The notes beneath the pieces were generated by a model that saw only the letters and a program-made list of their open reading frames with translations, made no database searches and was not told where the DNA came from. DNA of 5,248 nucleotides, from positions 1-5,248 of the IMG/VR virus record IMGVR_UViG_3300011182_000052, one strand, 5' to 3'. Each line of letters starts with the position of its first letter. The first letter of the stretch is position 1. This document shows, one piece after another, positions 1 through 5,248 of this stretch. A program made the translations under genes and the position numbers. This DNA is from a virus.

Positions 1-76
1 CTCCGGGATTGTCAATACCATTGACAACATTTGACAATTCACGGTTTTGACCCCGAGCCGCCGTTCAGCCAGGCCA
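1..76. repeat. Terminal direct repeat, copy A (circularisation overlap)
   Basis: ctccgggattgtcaatacc...ccgttcagccaggcca is identical base for base to 5173-5248. Confidence 0.97.
9..37. repeat. TTGACAA repeat cluster: a perfect 8-bp inverted repeat plus a third direct copy
   Basis: TTGTCAAT (9-16), ACC, ATTGACAA (20-27), then TTGACAA (31-37). Copy spacing is 12 and 10 nt. The same cluster recurs at 5181-5209. Confidence 0.85.
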
Positions 77-290
77 CTGTGGCGCACTCCACGACACTGG
101 ACACCCCCATACCTCCTTCCCGGCGACCCCGCGCCGGCACGCCGGCCCGACACCGATCCCGCGAGTTGGCCGCCCGTGGCTCGACAGAGCGCCCGACGGG
201 GTCCCCACGGAGTGGGGCAGGGAGGGCCGAGGCCGCAGGCCGAGCACAGGCCAATGAAGCAGGCCCTCGTCGTCTCCTGCCGCCACCCTC

Positions 291-319
291 TTGACAACTG
301 CGTCCGGACCCACTATACA
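291..319 (+). promoter_or_regulatory. Candidate sigma70-type promoter
   Basis: TTGACA (291-296), a 17-nt spacer, then TATACA (314-319). It lies about 45 nt upstream of the ORF starting at 363. It is the only TTGACA in the non-coding region with a plausible -10. Confidence 0.5.
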
Positions 320-362
320 GCGTTTCATGTGCCGACTTTCGGTACGCATCAGGGGACCCACG

Positions 363-488
363 ATGCAACGTGAAACCGCCATTGGCATGGTCTTGTTCTT
401 GCTCTTTCTTCTCGTCGTCGCGATGGGTGCGCCGGTCATCGCGCAGTCCTACCTCGAGGCCCAGCAGGTTGCCGAGGCATCGCCATGA
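363..488 (+). CDS. Small hydrophobic protein, 41 aa (single TM or signal-peptide-like); function unknown
   Basis: ATG at 363 is preceded by AGGGGA (351-356, 6-nt spacer). Product is MQRETAIGMVLFLLFLLVVAMGAPVIAQSYLEAQQVAEASP, a 20-aa hydrophobic core with an acidic tail. It is the inner part of track ORF 291..488. Stop is TGA 486-488. Confidence 0.45.
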   Translation: MQRETAIGMVLFLLFLLVVAMGAPVIAQSYLEAQQVAEASP

Positions 489-657
489 CTCGGGCTGACT
501 GGAACGCTGACTACCGCCGTGCTCGACTCGTCCGGCGCTTCGAGGAAACATTCACGCATTGCTTTCCTTTCAGACTTTTCGGCTTGTCAACGTCTGTCCA
601 CACCTGTGGCATCAAGGCCTACAGGGCTGCTCGGCGCGATCGCCAAGGACGTCCGGC

Positions 658-1734
658 ATGAGCCGCTGGCAGGGTGCCAAGGTGATCCCCCCCCAGCCTG
701 CTGGGGGGGGCATCACTGCCGGAGGGGGCGGCCCGTTGGGTAACACGGGACGAACCGACCGCAGGGAGGTTCGTAGCCCCCTTCCCACCCTCGCTTCTGA
801 CGGAAAGGCTTCTTCTGGTGCTCTTGTTGACTGGCTCTCCTTCACGGTACGCCCGCAGGGCGAGGACGCGGAGCTACTGCTTCAGGACCCAACCGCCTAC
901 ATTCGGGACTTGGTCTTGAAGGTCTTCTGCGGTTCCAGCATCTACGCGGACGAAGTCGAGAATCGCGGCCTCAACGGCTACAAGCAACGCGCCCGCATCC
1001 TGGTCGATGGCCAGCACGCTGCCGGCAGCTTCGCGGGCTGCGGAGGCAACAAAGGAACGGTCAACATCCAGTTGACCGGCACGGGCTGCGCTGGCGTTCG
1101 TGACTGGCTTTCGGTAGCTCAGGCCCTCGACCGCCTCGATGCAAAGATCACTCGAGTCGATCTGGCTTTTGACGACTACCACGGCCGCTGCATTGAGCTC
1201 GATCGGTGGATCGAGATGAGCCAACGCGGCGAGATTCGCGCCGGAGCCGGTCAGCCGCCCAAGCATCGCCTGATTACCGGCGATGACGGGACGACCCTTT
1301 ACGTCGGTGTCAAAGGCTCCAAGGAGCTTTGTGTCTACGAGAAGGGCAAAGAGCAGGGCGACCCTGACAGCCCTTGGCTACGGGCCGAAATGCGCTTCTG
1401 GGCCAATGACCGAGTTATTCCGGTTGCAGTCCTCACGCAGTCCCTGAGCTTCATACGAGCCGCTTACAACGTGCTTGCCGAGCTTCCCGGCGATGTCTGT
1501 GAGCGGATCAAGACCATCGGGCGTTCGGTCAGCGCCAAGGCTGTCGCCGCTCTTTCCTGGGCACGCCATGCGGTCGGCCCTCTTGTCCATGTTCTTGCCT
1601 GTGCTCTGGGCGAAGAACGGACAGCCGAACTCCTCCTTACTGACATTCGCCGATCCGCGATCCCTAGGCGATTCGCAGGTATTCATCGGGATCAACTCCA
1701 CCATCAACTACAGGTCGCCCTATGTCCGTTCTGA
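658..1734 (+). CDS. Rolling-circle replication initiation protein (Rep_trans / phage gII-type); start codon uncertain
   Basis: Track ORF 559..1734. It carries an N-terminal LVDWLSFTV motif and a TLYVGVKGSKELCVYEKGKEQG motif, both as I recall them for the Rep_trans family (pfam02486). It sits immediately upstream of the gV-like gene. The track start at 559 is TTG with a poorly spaced SD. ATG 658 has AAGGA (645-649, 8-nt spacer). TTG 736 behind GGAGGGGG (721-728) is an alternative. Confidence 0.85.
   Translation: MSRWQGAKVIPPQPAGGGITAGGGGPLGNTGRTDRREVRSPLPTLASDGKASSGALVDWLSFTVRPQGEDAELLLQDPTAYIRDLVLKVFCGSSIYADEVENRGLNGYKQRARILVDGQHAAGSFAGCGGNKGTVNIQLTGTGCAGVRDWLSVAQALDRLDAKITRVDLAFDDYHGRCIELDRWIEMSQRGEIRAGAGQPPKHRLITGDDGTTLYVGVKGSKELCVYEKGKEQGDPDSPWLRAEMRFWANDRVIPVAVLTQSLSFIRAAYNVLAELPGDVCERIKTIGRSVSAKAVAALSWARHAVGPLVHVLACALGEERTAELLLTDIRRSAIPRRFAGIHRDQLHHQLQVALCPF
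682..716 (+). other. C8/G8 homopolymer hairpin in the 5' part of the Rep ORF
   Basis: GTGAT-C8 (682-694), loop AGCCTGCT (695-702), G8-C-ATCAC (703-716). This gives a 13-bp stem with one bulged C (711). Confidence 0.7.
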
Positions 1735-1778
1735 CCTCCGCCATCCGTCTCGCTCTCGCCTACTCCTGAGGACCCATC

Positions 1779-2051
1779 ATGATCCGCATCACCATCACCC
1801 AAGAGCCTGTCAACGTCCGTACCGGCATCAAAGAGGGCCGCGAGTGGACTCGTCGGGAACAGACCGCCTACGTCCACAACGGTCACGCTTTTCCGCAGCG
1901 TTTTGTCATCAGTCTCGGGCCCACTTCCCAACCCTACGCACCGGGCGATTACTCGCTCGATGCTCGATCGGTTGTCATCGGTCAATACGGTGAATTGCAA
2001 TTCGCCCGTAACCTCCATCTTGTTCCCGACAAGACCGCCAAGGTCGCCTAA
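1779..2051 (+). CDS. ssDNA-binding protein, gene V (g5p) family
   Basis: ATG 1779 with GAGGA (1768-1772). The 90-aa product aligns by eye with M13 g5p along its length. MIRITI matches MIKVEI, SQPYAPGDYSL matches GQPAYAPGLYTV, and GQYGELQFARNLHLVPDK matches GQFGSLMIDRLRLVPAK. Confidence 0.9.
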   Translation: MIRITITQEPVNVRTGIKEGREWTRREQTAYVHNGHAFPQRFVISLGPTSQPYAPGDYSLDARSVVIGQYGELQFARNLHLVPDKTAKVA

Positions 2052-2248
2052 TGGCTTTCGTCTACGTATGCACTGCTTTTGATACTGCTCTTCAGCAGTG
2101 CAGCGAAGGCCGTTGGATTCCGTATTCTCAAGGTCCACTGCCTCCCTTGAGCGTCGAAGAAGCCCAGATAATCGGAGCCGCTGTCGTCGGCTTTTGGGTC
2201 ATCTGCGCTATTCTTCGCATCCTGAGGCAGGAACTGGCAAAATTGTAG
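2051..2248 (+). CDS. Small membrane protein (65 aa) at the gVII/gIX position; putative minor virion or assembly protein
   Basis: The ATG overlaps the gV stop (TAATG, 2049-2053), with AAGG 7 nt upstream. It has one C-terminal TM (AQIIGAAVVGFWVICAILRIL) followed by basic residues. It lies between the gV-like and coat genes, as gVII/gIX do in Ff. Confidence 0.6.
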   Translation: MAFVYVCTAFDTALQQCSEGRWIPYSQGPLPPLSVEEAQIIGAAVVGFWVICAILRILRQELAKL

Positions 2249-2259
2249 GAGGCTGTCCC

Positions 2260-2385
2260 ATGGACACCACTGCCATTATGGGCTTCGTAAACGATGCCCA
2301 GACCGCCGCCGTGGCTATCGGCATCGCGGTCACGATCTTGATCTTCGCGATCAAGGCGACCAAGTGGCTTCGCCGCGCCGGTTAA
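2260..2385 (+). CDS. Major coat protein (gVIII-like), 41 aa, no leader peptide
   Basis: Strong SD AGGAGG (2247-2252) lies 7 nt before ATG 2260. Product is MDTTAIMGFVNDAQTAAVAIGIAVTILIFAIKATKWLRRAG: an acidic N-terminus, a hydrophobic helix and a basic C-terminus (K,K,R,R). A terminator hairpin follows. Confidence 0.85.
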   Translation: MDTTAIMGFVNDAQTAAVAIGIAVTILIFAIKATKWLRRAG

Positions 2386-2400
2386 TTCAGGCGTTACACC

Positions 2401-2431
2401 GAGGGCCGGGTTTTCCGGCCCTCTCCTTCTT
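2401..2431 (+). terminator. Rho-independent-type terminator after the coat gene
   Basis: GAGGGCCGG (2401-2409), loop GTTTT, CCGGCCCTC (2415-2423): a perfect 9-bp GC-rich stem followed by T-rich TCCTTCTT. It starts 16 nt after the coat stop (TAA 2383-2385). Confidence 0.7.
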
Positions 2432-2459
2432 ATGGGTCAAAAACGATGGACATTACCGG

Positions 2460-3734
2460 ATGGTTCGTTTTGTTCGTTCTCTTTGTTGGCTTCTTCTTGC
2501 TGTTGGACTGACAGCGCAAGCTCAAGTTTTCAATTTTCCGGGTCAGGGACAAGCTTTTGCGGCTTGTATGGCTCACCGTTCAACAGCACTAGGGTTGACA
2601 AGAGTCGTAGAGACTGCTCAGGGTCCAAGGAACGAACGTTCAGTTTTACCCACTACGCAACAAAGGGCTTGCGTACATCCTACAAACCAACATTCACATG
2701 CTCATCCAGCAACAAATTCTGATAGGTACTTGTGCGAGGTTACTTGGGAACGAGAACACGCCCCTAATCAATGGTCACCTTCTAACACTGGAAGTTGTTC
2801 AGATCCACTAGGACCTTCTGGCGCAATAAACACCTATATTTTTCCCTCGACAAGCACATGTGCAACGCGTCCAAGGATGCTTACATTCGTACCCGGTGAT
2901 GTTTCTCGTATGTGTCACGCTGGATGCGCATTTACAACAGCGCCCGGGGTATCTTCATTCTCACCCGAAGATAACAGGACATTCGCAGAATGGATGCCTA
3001 CAGGTCTGGTTTGTGTTCCAACACCGACTCAACCAGCACCACCTAATCCGCCTCCACCGAATGCAGATACAGATGGGGATGGAACTCCAGACGCACAGGA
3101 CGAAAGGCCAAACGATCCCTCATGTTCTGTTGGCTGTGGTCCGCATCCTGGACAACAACCGCCTCCACTTCCTGCACCTACGAATGACAATCAGGACGAT
3201 GGCCTGCAAGTTGTAGATCATTTGAACCCTCGCCTTGACGCCATTAACAACAGCATCAGGGCCATGCAGCAGGCCATAACGTCAGCTCAACAAACAGGAA
3301 CAACGCAAGTCGTACAGGCCATCCAAAGCTCAGGCGGCGGCGGCGGTGGTACAGGCACTTCAATCAACCTCGATCCTGTCGTTCAAGCGATCAATGCCGC
3401 CGCTAGTTCTGATGCAGCCAATACTCAAGGCGTCACTGACGCAATCGATGCATTGCGCGATGATTTGGCCAGGAACACGGCACCAGCGGATGACGGTGCG
3501 AATCCTGATCCGTGGACCTCGGCCAATCCCATCGATCCGACGCAATTGGACGACGGGGGTTTCGGCTGGAATCGCGCCTGTCCACAGTTCCCCACTGTGG
3601 GTTTCATGGGCCATACGATCCACGTCGATCCCACCGGGCAGATGTGCACGATCTTGCAATTGTTGTCGCATTTGATTCTTTTAGCTGGTTTTGTTCATGC
3701 CGGTTATATCGTCGCGTCTCGAGGGAGGGCTTGA
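2460..3734 (+). CDS. Adsorption / minor coat protein (gIII-like), 424 aa
   Basis: The track start 2364 is GTG inside the coat gene and upstream of the terminator. ATG 2460 gives a textbook signal peptide, MVRFVRSLCWLLLAVGLTAQA/QV. Next are a domain with 8 Cys, a Pro-rich linker containing DTDGDGTPDAQD and a G6 linker (SSGGGGGGTGTS). The C-terminus is a hydrophobic anchor (ILQLLSHLILLAGFVHAGYIVASRGRA). This is a g3p-like modular layout at the g3p position. Confidence 0.85.
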   Translation: MVRFVRSLCWLLLAVGLTAQAQVFNFPGQGQAFAACMAHRSTALGLTRVVETAQGPRNERSVLPTTQQRACVHPTNQHSHAHPATNSDRYLCEVTWEREHAPNQWSPSNTGSCSDPLGPSGAINTYIFPSTSTCATRPRMLTFVPGDVSRMCHAGCAFTTAPGVSSFSPEDNRTFAEWMPTGLVCVPTPTQPAPPNPPPPNADTDGDGTPDAQDERPNDPSCSVGCGPHPGQQPPPLPAPTNDNQDDGLQVVDHLNPRLDAINNSIRAMQQAITSAQQTGTTQVVQAIQSSGGGGGGTGTSINLDPVVQAINAAASSDAANTQGVTDAIDALRDDLARNTAPADDGANPDPWTSANPIDPTQLDDGGFGWNRACPQFPTVGFMGHTIHVDPTGQMCTILQLLSHLILLAGFVHAGYIVASRGRA

Positions 3735-3735
3735 T

Positions 3736-4029
3736 ATGTTAACGGGTATTTGGGCGGCCATGATTGCGGCACTTGGCTGGCTGGTACGCTCACAGATAGG
3801 TCGATGGGTCGCCATCGCTCTAAGTGCTCTCGGTATTCAGTTCGCGATTACCGAAGGCGTTATGGACCCGCTTATCGCCTACATTTCGGCACAAGCCGGT
3901 GGCGGCGTGGGTGCTGCTACCGAGTGGCTCGGTTTCTTCAATGTTGATCGTTATATCACACTGATTCTCAGTGCTTATGCAGCAGCCGCTGCAATGTCTT
4001 TCGCAATCCAGCGTATTCAGCGTCCATGA
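3736..4029 (+). CDS. gVI-like small integral membrane protein (97 aa)
   Basis: GAGGGAGGG (3721-3729) precedes ATG 3736, one nt after the gIII stop (TGA 3732-3734). The product has several hydrophobic segments (MLTGIWAAMIAALGWLV..., VAIALSALGIQFAI..., ITLILSAYAAAAAMSFAI). Its stop overlaps the gI start (ATGA 4026-4029). It lies between gIII and gI, as in Ff and in phages where a DUF2523-type ORF precedes zot. The track start 3691 is TTG. Confidence 0.75.
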   Translation: MLTGIWAAMIAALGWLVRSQIGRWVAIALSALGIQFAITEGVMDPLIAYISAQAGGGVGAATEWLGFFNVDRYITLILSAYAAAAAMSFAIQRIQRP

Positions 4030-5129
4030 TTCATCTTCTCACCGGCTTACCGGGTAGCGGAAAAAGCCTTCGTGCCGTCCACTACATTCAGTCCTTTTTG
4101 CAAGAGGGCCGACCTGTTTATGTCTGGGGTGTCGATGGCCTCAATACGCCCGGCATCATGTCCCTTGACGATCCCAATCTTTGGGAAAGCCTTCCCGATG
4201 GATCAGTTATCGTCCTGGACGAGGCTCAGAAGCTGTGGCCATCTCGTCGCGGTGCGGAGCCGATCCCGCCTGTGCGCGCTCTCTCCGAGCATCGCCACCA
4301 GGGCAAAGACTTCGTGCTCATCACGCAGCATCCCGCGATGCTCGATAGCTACGTGCGCCGCCTTGTTGGCCGCCACGAGCACCTTGTTCGGAAGTTCGGC
4401 ATTCAGGCCGCTCAGGTGTTCTCGTGGAATGAGGTGCACGACGATCCGAGCCAGTCGAGCGCCCGCGAGTTGGCCGAAGAATCGCTGTGGGCTTATCCGA
4501 AGGACCTTTTCGGTCAGTACAAGAGTGCGACCCTGCACACCGTAAAGCGGCGTGTCCCCAAGTCTTTGTATGTCATCGCAGCCACAATCGTTATTATTCC
4601 TCTGCTCGCATGGCTCGCTTACAGCACCATTAGCGGATGGACGGATCAACCGGAAGCGGCAACATACGAACCGGCGCAGGCAGAGGTGCCCGGCTTGCCG
4701 GCCACCTCTGCCGAGCCTGTGCCTGTCACTCTATCCGCTCATGCCGAGTATCTCGCACAGTTCATCCCTCGAGTTCCTCACGTGCCTTGGACGGCGCCGG
4801 TTTACGATCGATTCCCCGTGCAGGATTATCCTCGCCCACATTGCATTATCGGCGGCGATCAACGGATCGAGCGCATCACATGCCGGTGCTTCACTCAGCA
4901 GGTGACGCCCATGGATGTGCCGGACGAGATGTGCATCGCCATCGCTCGCCACGGCGCATGGGACCATCGACGCCTTCCCTTCACTGACGAAGCATCCGAT
5001 GCCACGCCGGTTGATAGCCTGGACAACACCGACAGTCCAACGATTCAGGGACCAACAGGCCTTCATGCTGGTGTATTTGATCGAGCGATCGGCGGTTACG
5101 TGCCTCCGGAGTTCCTGAATCCACAGTGA
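4026..5129 (+). CDS. Zot / gI-family morphogenesis ATPase (367 aa)
   Basis: N-terminal Walker A MIHLLTGLPGSGKS and Walker B VIVLDEAQ. A central TM (LYVIAATIVIIPLLAWLAYSTI) is followed by a C-terminal domain containing 4 Cys. This is the typical gI/Zot (pfam05707) architecture, and it is the last gene before the non-coding region. Confidence 0.93.
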   Translation: MIHLLTGLPGSGKSLRAVHYIQSFLQEGRPVYVWGVDGLNTPGIMSLDDPNLWESLPDGSVIVLDEAQKLWPSRRGAEPIPPVRALSEHRHQGKDFVLITQHPAMLDSYVRRLVGRHEHLVRKFGIQAAQVFSWNEVHDDPSQSSARELAEESLWAYPKDLFGQYKSATLHTVKRRVPKSLYVIAATIVIIPLLAWLAYSTISGWTDQPEAATYEPAQAEVPGLPATSAEPVPVTLSAHAEYLAQFIPRVPHVPWTAPVYDRFPVQDYPRPHCIIGGDQRIERITCRCFTQQVTPMDVPDEMCIAIARHGAWDHRRLPFTDEASDATPVDSLDNTDSPTIQGPTGLHAGVFDRAIGGYVPPEFLNPQ

Positions 5130-5160
5130 ATCCTGATATACAAAACACTTGACATGCAGT

Positions 5161-5237
5161 AACGGCGCGGCTCTCCGGGATTGTCAATACCATTGACAAC
5201 ATTTGACAATTCACGGTTTTGACCCCGAGCCGCCGTT
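5161..5237 (+). other. Compound stem-loop spanning the circle junction; candidate packaging signal or origin element
   Basis: The outer stem pairs AACGGCG[CG]GCTC (5161-5173) with GAGCCGCCGTT (5227-5237): 11 bp with a 2-nt bulge. It encloses the inner 8-bp hairpin TTGTCAAT/ATTGACAA (5181-5188 / 5192-5199) and a third TTGACAA (5203-5209). It starts 32 nt after the gI stop. Confidence 0.6.
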
Positions 5238-5248
5238 CAGCCAGGCCA
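5173..5248. repeat. Terminal direct repeat, copy B (circularisation overlap)
   Basis: Identical to 1-76. The window ends exactly where the identity ends, as expected for a circular molecule written out linearly. Confidence 0.97.

Follow-up and report, generated by a model that had tools for sequence, protein, structure and literature searches.

A complete 5,172-nt circular inovirus genome lacking the regulator and attP module of its closest relatives

Introduction

The inovirus isolates recognised by the ICTV have genomes of 5.5-10.6 kb (PMC8491893), and a range of about 5-15 kb has been given for inoviruses by Roux et al. 2019 (PMC6813254). The smallest ICTV inovirus isolate is Ralstonia phage PE226 (Inoviridae, Parhipatevirus, NC_015297), with 5,475 nt. 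Loss of a module within such phages is exemplified by phiRSS0 and phiRSS1 of Ralstonia solanacearum (7,288 vs 6,662 nt). Phage phiRSS1 is without an element of roughly 0.63 kb by the intergenic region that contains a regulator in reverse orientation together with a dif-like attP; phiRSS0 integrates via the host XerCD, and phiRSS1 is viewed as a superinfective phage that has escaped (PMC3816273).

Here we describe a window of 5,248 nt (the whole stretch of DNA that was analysed), which contains in full the circular genome of a filamentous (M13-like) phage of the Inoviridae that has not been cultivated. Its features are collected in Table 1. Two groups of metagenomic relatives, with genome sizes of 5.04-5.85 kb, were used for comparison: three Logan contigs (L094, L095 and L096; 5.77-5.85 kb), which share the replication half of the window, and a clade from Lake Mendota and IMG/VR (L002-L004, L020, L021, L091 and L093; hereafter the Mendota clade).

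Table 1. Features of the 5,248-nt window
Feature	Position	Strand	Description
Terminal overlap	1..76	.	Copy of 5173-5248; assembly closure of the 5,172-nt circle
Putative DUF3653-like 3' remnant	39..289	-	Aligns with the 3' portion of L094 1207-1662(-) at 91-94% nt
Three-hairpin single-strand DNA element	177..271	+	Conserved, downstream of gI
Junction	285..291	.	Site of about 629 extra nt in L094/L095, flanked there by the 5-nt microhomology ACCCT
Promoter-like element	291..319	+	TTGACA-17 nt-TATACA, for the orf41-orf58-Rep operon; directly 3' of the junction
orf41	363..488	+	Conserved 41-aa single-pass membrane protein; one hydrophobic segment
orf58	485..661	+	ATGA overlaps with orf41 and with Rep
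Rep	658..1734	+	358-aa rolling-circle initiator, Rep_trans/RstA type
C8/G8 hairpin	682..716	+	Very stable; within the 5' end of the Rep gene; 11-bp perfect stem, -16.4 kcal/mol
gV	1779..2051	+	90-aa single-strand DNA-binding protein; PF02303 E=7e-15, 55.5 bits
orf65	2051..2248	+	Small protein, C-terminal membrane segment; phrog_4644 E=5e-13
gVIII	2260..2385	+	41-aa major coat protein without signal peptide (leaderless)
Intrinsic-terminator-like hairpin	2401..2423	+	T-rich tail, 3' of gVIII; folding z-score -5.2
gIII	2460..3734	+	424-aa adsorption protein; signal peptide, Cys-rich N-terminal part
gVI	3736..4029	+	97-aa minor coat protein; DUF2523 E=1e-8, 36 bits; phrog_1242
gI/Zot	4026..5129	+	367-aa assembly ATPase, Walker A motif, one membrane segment
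TTGACA(A)/TTGTCAA motif cluster	5150..5225	+	Directly 3' of gI; 5173 onward repeats 1-53

Genome unit and family assignment

Bases 1-76 of the window are exactly those of 5173-5248, which leaves a circular unit of 5,172 nt with a G+C content of 57.7%. The same sequence is present in ENA as contig k141_44990 of ERZ27245539, which is 5,313 nt long, has an end overlap of 141 nt, and is identical to the window unit over all 5,172 nt (0 mismatches). Two assembly runs with different overlap lengths (76 and 141 nt) close one and the same circle, and neither of them contains host flanks. The genome was found in one sample only and, given this, could be a transient variant.

Nine genes are encoded on the plus strand in the order known from Ff phages: orf41, orf58, Rep, gV, orf65, the coat gene (gVIII), gIII, gVI and gI/Zot. 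A preceding reading of the sequence without database searches (the sequence-only reading) had proposed a complete circular inovirus genome on the basis of the 76-bp end overlap, and the identically closing second contig confirms this. The gene map also upholds the Ff gene order that it described, and Pfam matches were obtained for five of the families it had named (Rep, gV, gVIII, gVI and gI). Its count of about eight proteins, with one extra ORF upstream of Rep, has to be corrected to nine genes, as two coupled ORFs (orf41 and orf58) occur at this position. It had further stated that a secretin, a regulator and an integrase are missing, and none was detected in family searches of the window ORFs: other ORFs of >=50 aa, in all frames of the window, gave no further Pfam match at E<=0.01, and ORFs of the intergenic region matched no regulator family.

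The assignment to the Inoviridae follows from a circle whose replication, structural and assembly modules succeed one another as in Ff phages, all on one strand, from a pI/Zot ATPase whose Walker A motif is accompanied by a single membrane segment, from a small alpha-helical major coat protein (CoaB; PF05356), and from a rolling-circle initiator together with an ssDNA-binding protein (PF02486, PF02303). Every hallmark family of the Inoviridae scores higher than its Pfam cut-off. The G+C content falls within the ICTV range. The size of 5,172 nt falls below the 5.5-10.6 kb of the ICTV, a range that is descriptive for the family and not defining. The earlier suggestion that the genome is at or below the known lower size limit holds for the ICTV isolates, but smaller genomes do exist: L067 in IMG/VR is a complete inovirus of 5,094 nt, closed by a terminal repeat, and L091 of the Mendota clade would close at about 5.04 kb.

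A nucleotide search against 50,697 phage records gave no match to the window, and the best isolate proteins are only 35-37% identical, in agreement with the earlier view of an undescribed lineage. Membership of an existing genus is judged by the ICTV from >50% aa similarity of Zot and CoaB; the values found here, which are identities and not similarities, are 36% for the closest isolate Zot and 40% for the coat protein (to ORF4 of PE226), with 37% for the closest Rep. A Gram-negative proteobacterium is a plausible host.

Genes and intergenic elements

The promoter-like element of the orf41-orf58-Rep operon was read from the sequence and is conserved in L094 and L095; a consensus promoter scan omitted it because its -10 hexamer ends in A. 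The orf41 protein has aa identities of 90-93% to L095/L096 and of 64-68% to ORFs of 41-42 aa in the Mendota clade, its variable sites per codon position number 18/12/35, and phrog_14031 matches it at E=0.01; it is a possible pVII/pIX-like minor coat protein. No family match was found for orf58, which shows 76% aa identity to a 55-aa ORF of L096 and 57% to a 71-aa ORF of L095, with second codon positions being the most conserved. Rep is matched by PF02486 (E=1.2e-19, 71 bits), by phrog_453 (E=3.7e-69) and, weakly, by PDB entry 4CIJ, and its start at 658 agrees with homologues. The C8/G8 hairpin within its gene is kept in L094-96 and also in L022, where a compensatory C-G to T-A change has occurred.

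For gV, the M13-like character noted earlier is borne out by matches to the Ff gene V protein in the PDB (E about 1e-8 to 1e-9), and the protein is 100% identical to that of L095 and L096. The orf65 product, at the pVII/pIX position, is probably a minor coat protein; its identity is 63-66% to the Mendota clade vs 37% to L095/L096. The coat gene has an AGGAGG ribosome-binding site, and its product, which runs from an acidic N-terminus through a membrane segment to a basic C-terminus, matches positions 16-55 of the PF05356 profile (29.4 bits, cut-off 23.5). A terminator-like hairpin likewise follows gVIII in Ff phages. The gIII protein has linkers rich in Pro and Gly as well as a C-terminal anchor, and phrog_4454 matches its C-terminus; this gene is the least conserved (31-34%) and the poorest in G+C. 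For gVI, identity to the Mendota clade is 71-75%. The assembly ATPase is matched by PF05707 (E=4e-25, 88.8 bits, cut-off 20.3), phrog_197 (E=1e-76) and PDB 2R2A (E=6e-20), with a GLPGSGKS motif and the membrane segment at residues 177-204.

Two elements stand out in the intergenic region. The motif cluster 3' of gI contains a hairpin-forming palindrome, ATTGTCAAT-ACC-ATTGACAA, and has a folding z-score of -3.5; TTGACAA occurs 6 times per unit vs 0.54 expected. The cluster is found only in genomes with a Rep_trans-type Rep (the window, L094-96 and L022) and is absent from relatives with a PF23343 Rep. It is a candidate plus-strand origin or Rep-binding region, the alternative being that the motifs are promoters or operators. 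Of the 21 pairs of the three-hairpin element, 10 show compensatory changes, and 98.8% of cells are paired vs <=50% when slid. Its covariance model gives a single plus-strand match in each of 12 genomes, among which both Rep types are represented, and none elsewhere among 94 loci. It may be a packaging signal or a minus-strand origin.

The missing regulator/attP module

The replication halves of L094-96 and the window are shared at 90-94% nt (1-289, about 285-546, and 632-2051), and the Rep proteins are 95% identical. Within this collinear context, the window is without a segment of about 629 nt that L094 and L095 have between identical flanks, ...GCCGCCACCCT and CTTGACAACTG. L096 has the left edge and the module in common with them; its right edge is not resolved. 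The extra segment of L094 encodes, on the minus strand, an HTH regulator (phrog_638, E=1e-17), and it contains the N-terminal part (most) of a DUF3653-like ORF as well as a dif-like site, which was found in L095 and L096 too. All genomes of L094-96 and the Mendota clade have a minus-strand regulator (phrog_638, HTH_3 or DUF3653 genes) and most have a dif-like site. Such sites occur in L002, L003, L020-22, L093 and L094-96; L002 is integrated beside a host RTX gene, with a half dif on one side and a full dif-like site on the other. The window has neither. No window ORF has an HTH or regulator match that would indicate a minus-strand repressor or immunity gene, no intergenic TTCGCATAATG-like dif core occurs in the window, and the best dif-like attP candidates (14-16/28) are at the level of shuffled sequence. 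The genome is small because the lysogeny module (about 629 nt) of its closest relatives is missing, a cause that the sequence-only reading had overlooked along with the mosaic origin described below.

From parsimony we infer a loss in the window rather than a gain in the relatives. If the lineage were ancestrally minimal, and L094-96 and the other relatives had gained the 0.63-kb regulator/attP cassette by insertion, this insertion would need to begin exactly at the start codon of the regulator and to end in frame inside an ORF running to a stop in the older sequence. Moreover, the position of the module does not differ between the two sub-lineages (L094-96 and L022; L002, L003, L020, L021 and L093), and microhomology at the junction is typical of deletion. 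We consider such a gain distinctly improbable, even though PE226 likewise has no regulator and substitution counts over 1-289 lack a clear coding signal. The structured element within 39-289 also exists without a DUF3653 ORF in L091 and L004; therefore this region, which has no family match, need not be a gene remnant. A 170-aa ORF at 39-551, a gene-caller fusion through the antisense of orf41 and orf58, is probably not a gene, as the antisense frame over orf41 shows a non-coding substitution pattern.

An alternative without a free replicon, in which an assembler collapsed a tandem prophage array or a repeat-flanked prophage into a circle, is very improbable. Relatives integrate at dif, and L003 contains more than one unit, so tandem arrays exist in the group. 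However, the dif-like site, an integrase and a host flank are all missing in both assemblies, and overlaps of unequal length on one unit are expected when an assembler closes a circle. An array would in any case yield the same complete genome unit.

Two halves of different origin

Comparison with both groups of relatives indicates that the genome is a recombinant, its replication half (5076-5172 plus 1-2051) and its morphogenesis half (2052-5075) deriving from different lineages. The left breakpoint is at 2051/2052 and the right one near 5076, where similarity to L094-96 resumes. In between, no nucleotide similarity is detectable in the known relatives, and the morphogenesis module of L094-96 is unrelated to that of the window (gI 30%). 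This half is instead related to the Lake Mendota contigs (65-76% aa), orf65, coat, gVI and gI being shared with the Mendota clade at 63-76% aa, whereas the Rep of that clade belongs to a different family (PF23343). A chimeric assembly of two co-occurring phages is extremely unlikely: related phages do co-occur in samples and both breakpoints are at gene boundaries, but an assembler with k=141 (label k141, 141-nt overlap) needs equally long exact shared stretches at both breakpoints, two assemblies with unequal overlaps gave identical sequence, and the gene junctions are intact and compact.

Discussion

We think it highly probable that the window represents a complete minimal inovirus built on the PE226 plan, which is small through its missing lysogeny module, non-integrating and recombinant. 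Family assignments allow a life cycle to be proposed by homology. The Rep_trans/RstA-type Rep would nick the replicative form and start rolling-circle synthesis of the plus strand, with the origin probably within the TTGACAA cluster, and gV would coat the single strands. The three-hairpin element may act as a packaging signal, as the minus-strand origin, or as both. The leaderless coat protein would form the filament; one tip would carry gIII and gVI, and the other orf65 and perhaps also orf41. Assembly would proceed via the gI/Zot ATPase in the inner membrane. Since the phage has no secretin gene, export would rely on a secretin of the host. The lost module would have comprised the minus-strand HTH regulator and the DUF3653 ORF, along with a dif-like attP of the kind used for integration by XerCD; as it is missing, the phage is predicted to be non-integrating and unrepressed (purely episomal, chronic). 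By analogy with phiRSS1 relative to phiRSS0, it is possibly superinfective.

A more far-reaching and rather unlikely reading is that the genome is an escape derivative that arose naturally from a XerCD-integrating inovirus, is obligately episomal and shows the exact deletion junction, and that orf41 and the three-hairpin element form a hitherto unrecognised packaging-initiation pair. As parts of this same doubtful proposal, orf41 would be a pVII/pIX analogue outside the structural module and the hairpin element the DNA signal. These two are the best-conserved features across otherwise unrelated replication and morphogenesis modules, and L094-96 and the Mendota clade both have orf41 and the structured intergenic element, as does the window.

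With this genome the Inoviridae gain an uncultivated lineage of genus level. As it is 303 nt shorter than the smallest ICTV isolate, the published lower bound of 5.5 kb needs softening; smaller complete inovirus genomes are already in metagenome catalogues, and in this respect the window is tidy but ordinary. It provides a natural case, exact to the base, in which a repressor/attP module distinguishes a filamentous phage from its kin, and is a clean case of the exchange of whole replication and morphogenesis modules. Two cis elements are testable, the origin-candidate cluster tied to the Rep type and the covarying hairpin element independent of it. Should a host be found, the compact nine-gene genome is a possible minimal chassis.

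Among isolates, the best matches are Xanthomonas and Stenotrophomonas phages (Cf1c, XacF1, Xf109 and SMA6; Zot 34-36%, Rep 35-37%), identities far under the ICTV genus criterion of >50% similarity. Their Rep is likewise of the Rep_trans/RstA type and their modules follow the same order, but their genomes, at 6.5-8.3 kb, include regulators and extra ORFs. The phiRSS0/phiRSS1 pair resembles L094/L095 vs the window in the segment that is missing. However, BLAST detects no homology between the phiRSS and L094 regulators (the only match of the latter is Stenotrophomonas phage SMA9), the L094-type element also contains the DUF3653 ORF, and the whole morphogenesis module, too, is different between the window and its long relatives. 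Closest in plan is PE226, which likewise has nine ORFs on one strand and no regulator, secretin or integrase, with a small membrane ORF, a Rep_trans-type Rep and an ssDNA-binding protein followed by small minor-coat ORFs, coat, gIII, gVI and Zot. Its proteins are distant (Zot 35%, Rep 30-31% aa identity), its coat protein has 69 aa with a leader rather than 41 aa without one and, unlike PE226, the window has an Ff-like gV (PF02303).

Circular closure and gene content

The first 76 bases of the window are repeated exactly at its end (5173-5248), which defines a unit of 5,172 nt with 57.7% G+C. Searching for exact copies of the gI protein retrieved a second contig, ENA ERZ27245539 k141_44990 (5,313 nt, 141-nt end overlap), that contains the identical 5,172-nt unit with 0 mismatches, the window beginning at contig base 48; the proteins of the window are also encoded on a 5,248-nt JGI contig. 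As the overlaps differ in length (76 vs 141 nt) yet yield one unit, two assembly runs close the identical circle, and host flanks are absent from both. The earlier claim of a complete circular genome is thus confirmed, and the unit is complete whether it exists as an episomal circle or as a tandem array, the evidence being assemblies rather than reads.

Genes were assigned by HMM searches (Pfam, PHROG) and PDB matches.

Features of the window, and of the extra segment in the related Logan contig L094
Feature	Position	Strand	Assignment or remark
orf41	363-488	+	upstream of Rep; ATGA overlap with orf58
orf58	485-661	+	ATGA overlaps with orf41 and with Rep
Rep	658-1734	+	Rep_trans PF02486, 71 bits; phrog_453, E=3.7e-69
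gV	1779-2051	+	PF02303; PDB Ff gene V protein, E ~1e-8 to 1e-9
orf65	2051-2248	+	phrog_4644; membrane segment at C-terminus
gVIII	2260-2385	+	PF05356; leaderless coat protein, 41 aa
Terminator-like hairpin	2401-2423	+	3' of gVIII, placed as in Ff phages
gIII	2460-3734	+	424 aa; signal peptide, Pro/Gly linkers, C-terminal anchor
gVI	3736-4029	+	DUF2523
gI/Zot	4026-5129	+	PF05707; PDB 2R2A, E=6e-20
Regulator (L094)		-	complete; phrog_638, E=1e-17
DUF3653-like ORF (L094)			N-terminal two-thirds
dif-like site (L094)			also in L095 and L096

Where the sequence-only reading had a single small ORF upstream of Rep, there are two, orf41 and orf58, which brings the gene count to nine. The former is kept in all relatives, and the distribution of its variable sites over the codon positions (18/12/35) fits plus-strand coding; homologues of the latter occur in the Logan contigs L095 and L096. 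No further ORF of at least 50 aa in the window has a Pfam match and family searches of the intergenic-region ORFs returned nothing relevant, so that the reported absence of secretin, regulator and integrase stands. Rfam searches of the window gave zero matches, and it contains no tRNA.

The major coat protein lacks a signal peptide; its counterpart in L094-L096 is unrelated and 48 aa long. No sequence-level relative of gIII was found among solved structures. Within the genome, G+C is lowest in the N-terminal half of gIII (2460-3200; 48-52%, vs 58-65% in the replication half), which is also the least conserved coding region (31-34% amino-acid identity, vs 65-75% for the adjoining genes); this fits a receptor-binding domain that is fast-evolving or has been exchanged.

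Absence of a lysogeny module

A search with Rep identified three Logan contigs, L094 (5,839-nt unit), L095 (5,850-nt unit) and L096 (5,772 nt), in which Rep is 95% and gV 100% identical to that of the window, and which can be aligned to window positions 1-289, ~285-546 and 632-2051 at 90-94% nucleotide identity. Between ...GCCGCCACCCT and CTTGACAACTG, L094 and L095 have ~629 extra nt, with a microhomology of 5 nt (ACCCT) at the flanks; L096 matches them at the left edge, the one edge placed, and carries the module as well. The DUF3653-like ORF of L094 has no match in the phage database. L096 possesses two dif-like sites on the same strand, 51 nt apart (at offsets 560 and 611, counted from the base that aligns with position 1 of the window).

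A similar module occupies the same location in L022, a further relative, and in most members of the Mendota clade, a group of metagenomic relatives. One of these, L002, is a ~5.4 kb prophage bounded by a half dif on one side and a full dif-like site on the other (43-70 and 5483-5510), suggesting that the group integrates by way of XerCD; a large host gene (RTX/He_PIG/LysM/RHS-repeat; 6591-10994) adjoins the prophage. A dif search in the window gave matches at shuffle level only. The parsimonious reading is that the lysogeny module has been lost from the window, and the absence of this regulator/attP module explains the small genome.

The promoter-like element (TTGACA-17 nt-TATACA) of the orf41-orf58-Rep operon begins one base past the deletion junction. 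Close by, an 18-nt direct repeat, GGACCCAC(T/G)AT(A/G)CA(G/A)CGT, is present in two copies (306-323 and 354-371): one copy shares bases with the -10-like hexamer, the other with the start codon of orf41. The repeat is a possible operator or signal for translation.

Automated calling on the ENA contig missed orf41 and orf58 and gave instead a 170-aa minus-strand gene (window 39-551; 86-598 in the gene-call coordinates of that contig, L001). This ORF is confined to the two contigs of the window genome itself and consists of the DUF3653 tail fused to the antisense of orf41/orf58 across the junction; it is probably spurious. As regulator candidates, 39-551 and 65-439 on the minus strand and 31-294 and 47-373 on the plus strand were rejected, having no family match and a low-complexity Arg/Gly/Pro composition, the first of them additionally as a junction-spanning chimera.

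Mosaic origin and taxonomic standing

Amino-acid identities between the window and its relatives differ from gene to gene. L095/L096 have Rep at 95%, gV at 100% and orf41 at 90-93%, with orf65 at 37%, gI at 29-30% and no match for the coat protein or gVI of the window. In the Mendota clade, Rep belongs to a different family (PF23343), gV is 32-34% and orf41 64-67% identical, and the values are 63-66% for orf65, 68-76% for the coat, 71-75% for gVI and 65-67% for gI. With breakpoints at 2051/2052 and near 5076, these comparisons indicate that two lineages recombined to give this genome.

Whole-genome nucleotide searches, near and distant, against the INPHARED phages gave zero matches, and the closest isolate proteins (Xanthomonas Cf1c/XacF1, Stenotrophomonas SMA6, Ralstonia PE226) are 34-37% identical. 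The lineage is thus undescribed, as had been proposed, and under the ICTV genus criterion for Inoviridae (PMC8491893) it is new at genus level. Metagenome proteins are far closer, with a clade on 5.0-5.6 kb contigs having Zot proteins 57-69% identical; part of it derives from a Lake Mendota co-assembly (PMC11374980). Scanning IMG/VR with a single Zot protein gave nothing; a profile scan found the clade members L020 (5,395-nt unit) and L021 (5,490-nt unit). At 7,968 nt, L003 extends beyond a single phage unit in a tandem arrangement, and its two copies differ in the small ORFs preceding Rep.

Candidate cis elements

A 95-nt element (177-271, plus strand) forms three hairpins with 21 pairs, 10 of which show compensatory changes; 98.8% of cells are paired, vs at most 50% with the partners slid. 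It is covariation that supports these hairpins, single-sequence folding of the intergenic region being not significant (z = -1.65; z = 0.04 for 176-262). A covariance model locates a single copy of the element in each of 12 genomes, which cover both Rep types (the window, L002, L003, L004, L020-22, L091 and L093-96), always on the plus strand just downstream of gI, and none in 80-odd other inovirus loci searched. Since it occurs with either type of Rep, the element is a candidate for the packaging signal or for the minus-strand origin.

The motif TTGACAA/TTGTCAA is strongly over-represented (6 per unit vs 0.54 expected), with a cluster at 5150-5225 (5173 onward repeats 1-53) that includes a hairpin-forming palindrome, and further copies at 291, 584 and 2595. 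Such a cluster follows gI only in genomes with a Rep_trans-type Rep, and is a candidate plus-strand origin, promoters or operators being the alternative. A longer motif, TCCGGG(A/T)TTGTCAAT, is common to the window and L022.

Within the first 20 codons of Rep, a perfect 11-bp hairpin based on C8/G8 (682-716) is kept in L094-96, and also in L022, where a C-G pair is replaced by T-A in a compensatory change despite a differing peptide. The hairpin might control translation, or act as an origin or as a site of priming.

Genome size, host and comparison with known phages

The genome had been suggested to lie at or below the known lower size limit of the family. With 5,172 nt it is indeed below the ICTV range of 5.5-10.6 kb (PMC8491893), and inovirus genomes of ~5-15 kb have been reported by Roux et al. 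(PMC6813254). However, the IMG/VR inovirus L067 (IMGVR_UViG_3300020044_012909) is complete, a 121-nt terminal repeat closing a 5,094-nt unit, and so is smaller than the window and than every ICTV isolate; its genes include those for Zot, Rep, coat and gVI, and a 419-aa ORF without a family match occupies the gIII position. L091, of the Mendota clade, is short by only nine Rep codons at 5,017 nt and is expected to close at ~5.04 kb. The window therefore lies under the isolate range, yet public data extend to still smaller genomes; the original observation holds, and its interpretation in part.

A scan of genome collections yielded only distant prophages (at most 40% identity; a Lysobacterales MAG at 40%, followed by Cellvibrio, Xanthomonas and Stenotrophomonas) and no host assignment; the host is likely a Gram-negative proteobacterium.

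We conclude that the window is a complete, compact inovirus, representing a new genus-level lineage, with a recombinant origin and a PE226-like plan. PE226 (5,475 nt) likewise has nine ORFs on one strand, no regulator and a small membrane ORF preceding Rep; unlike the leaderless coat protein of the window, those of PE226 and L067 have leaders. For the absent module there is a precedent in phiRSS0 and the superinfective phiRSS1, the latter missing a 626-nt element that comprises the regulator ORF13 and the dif attP (PMC3816273).
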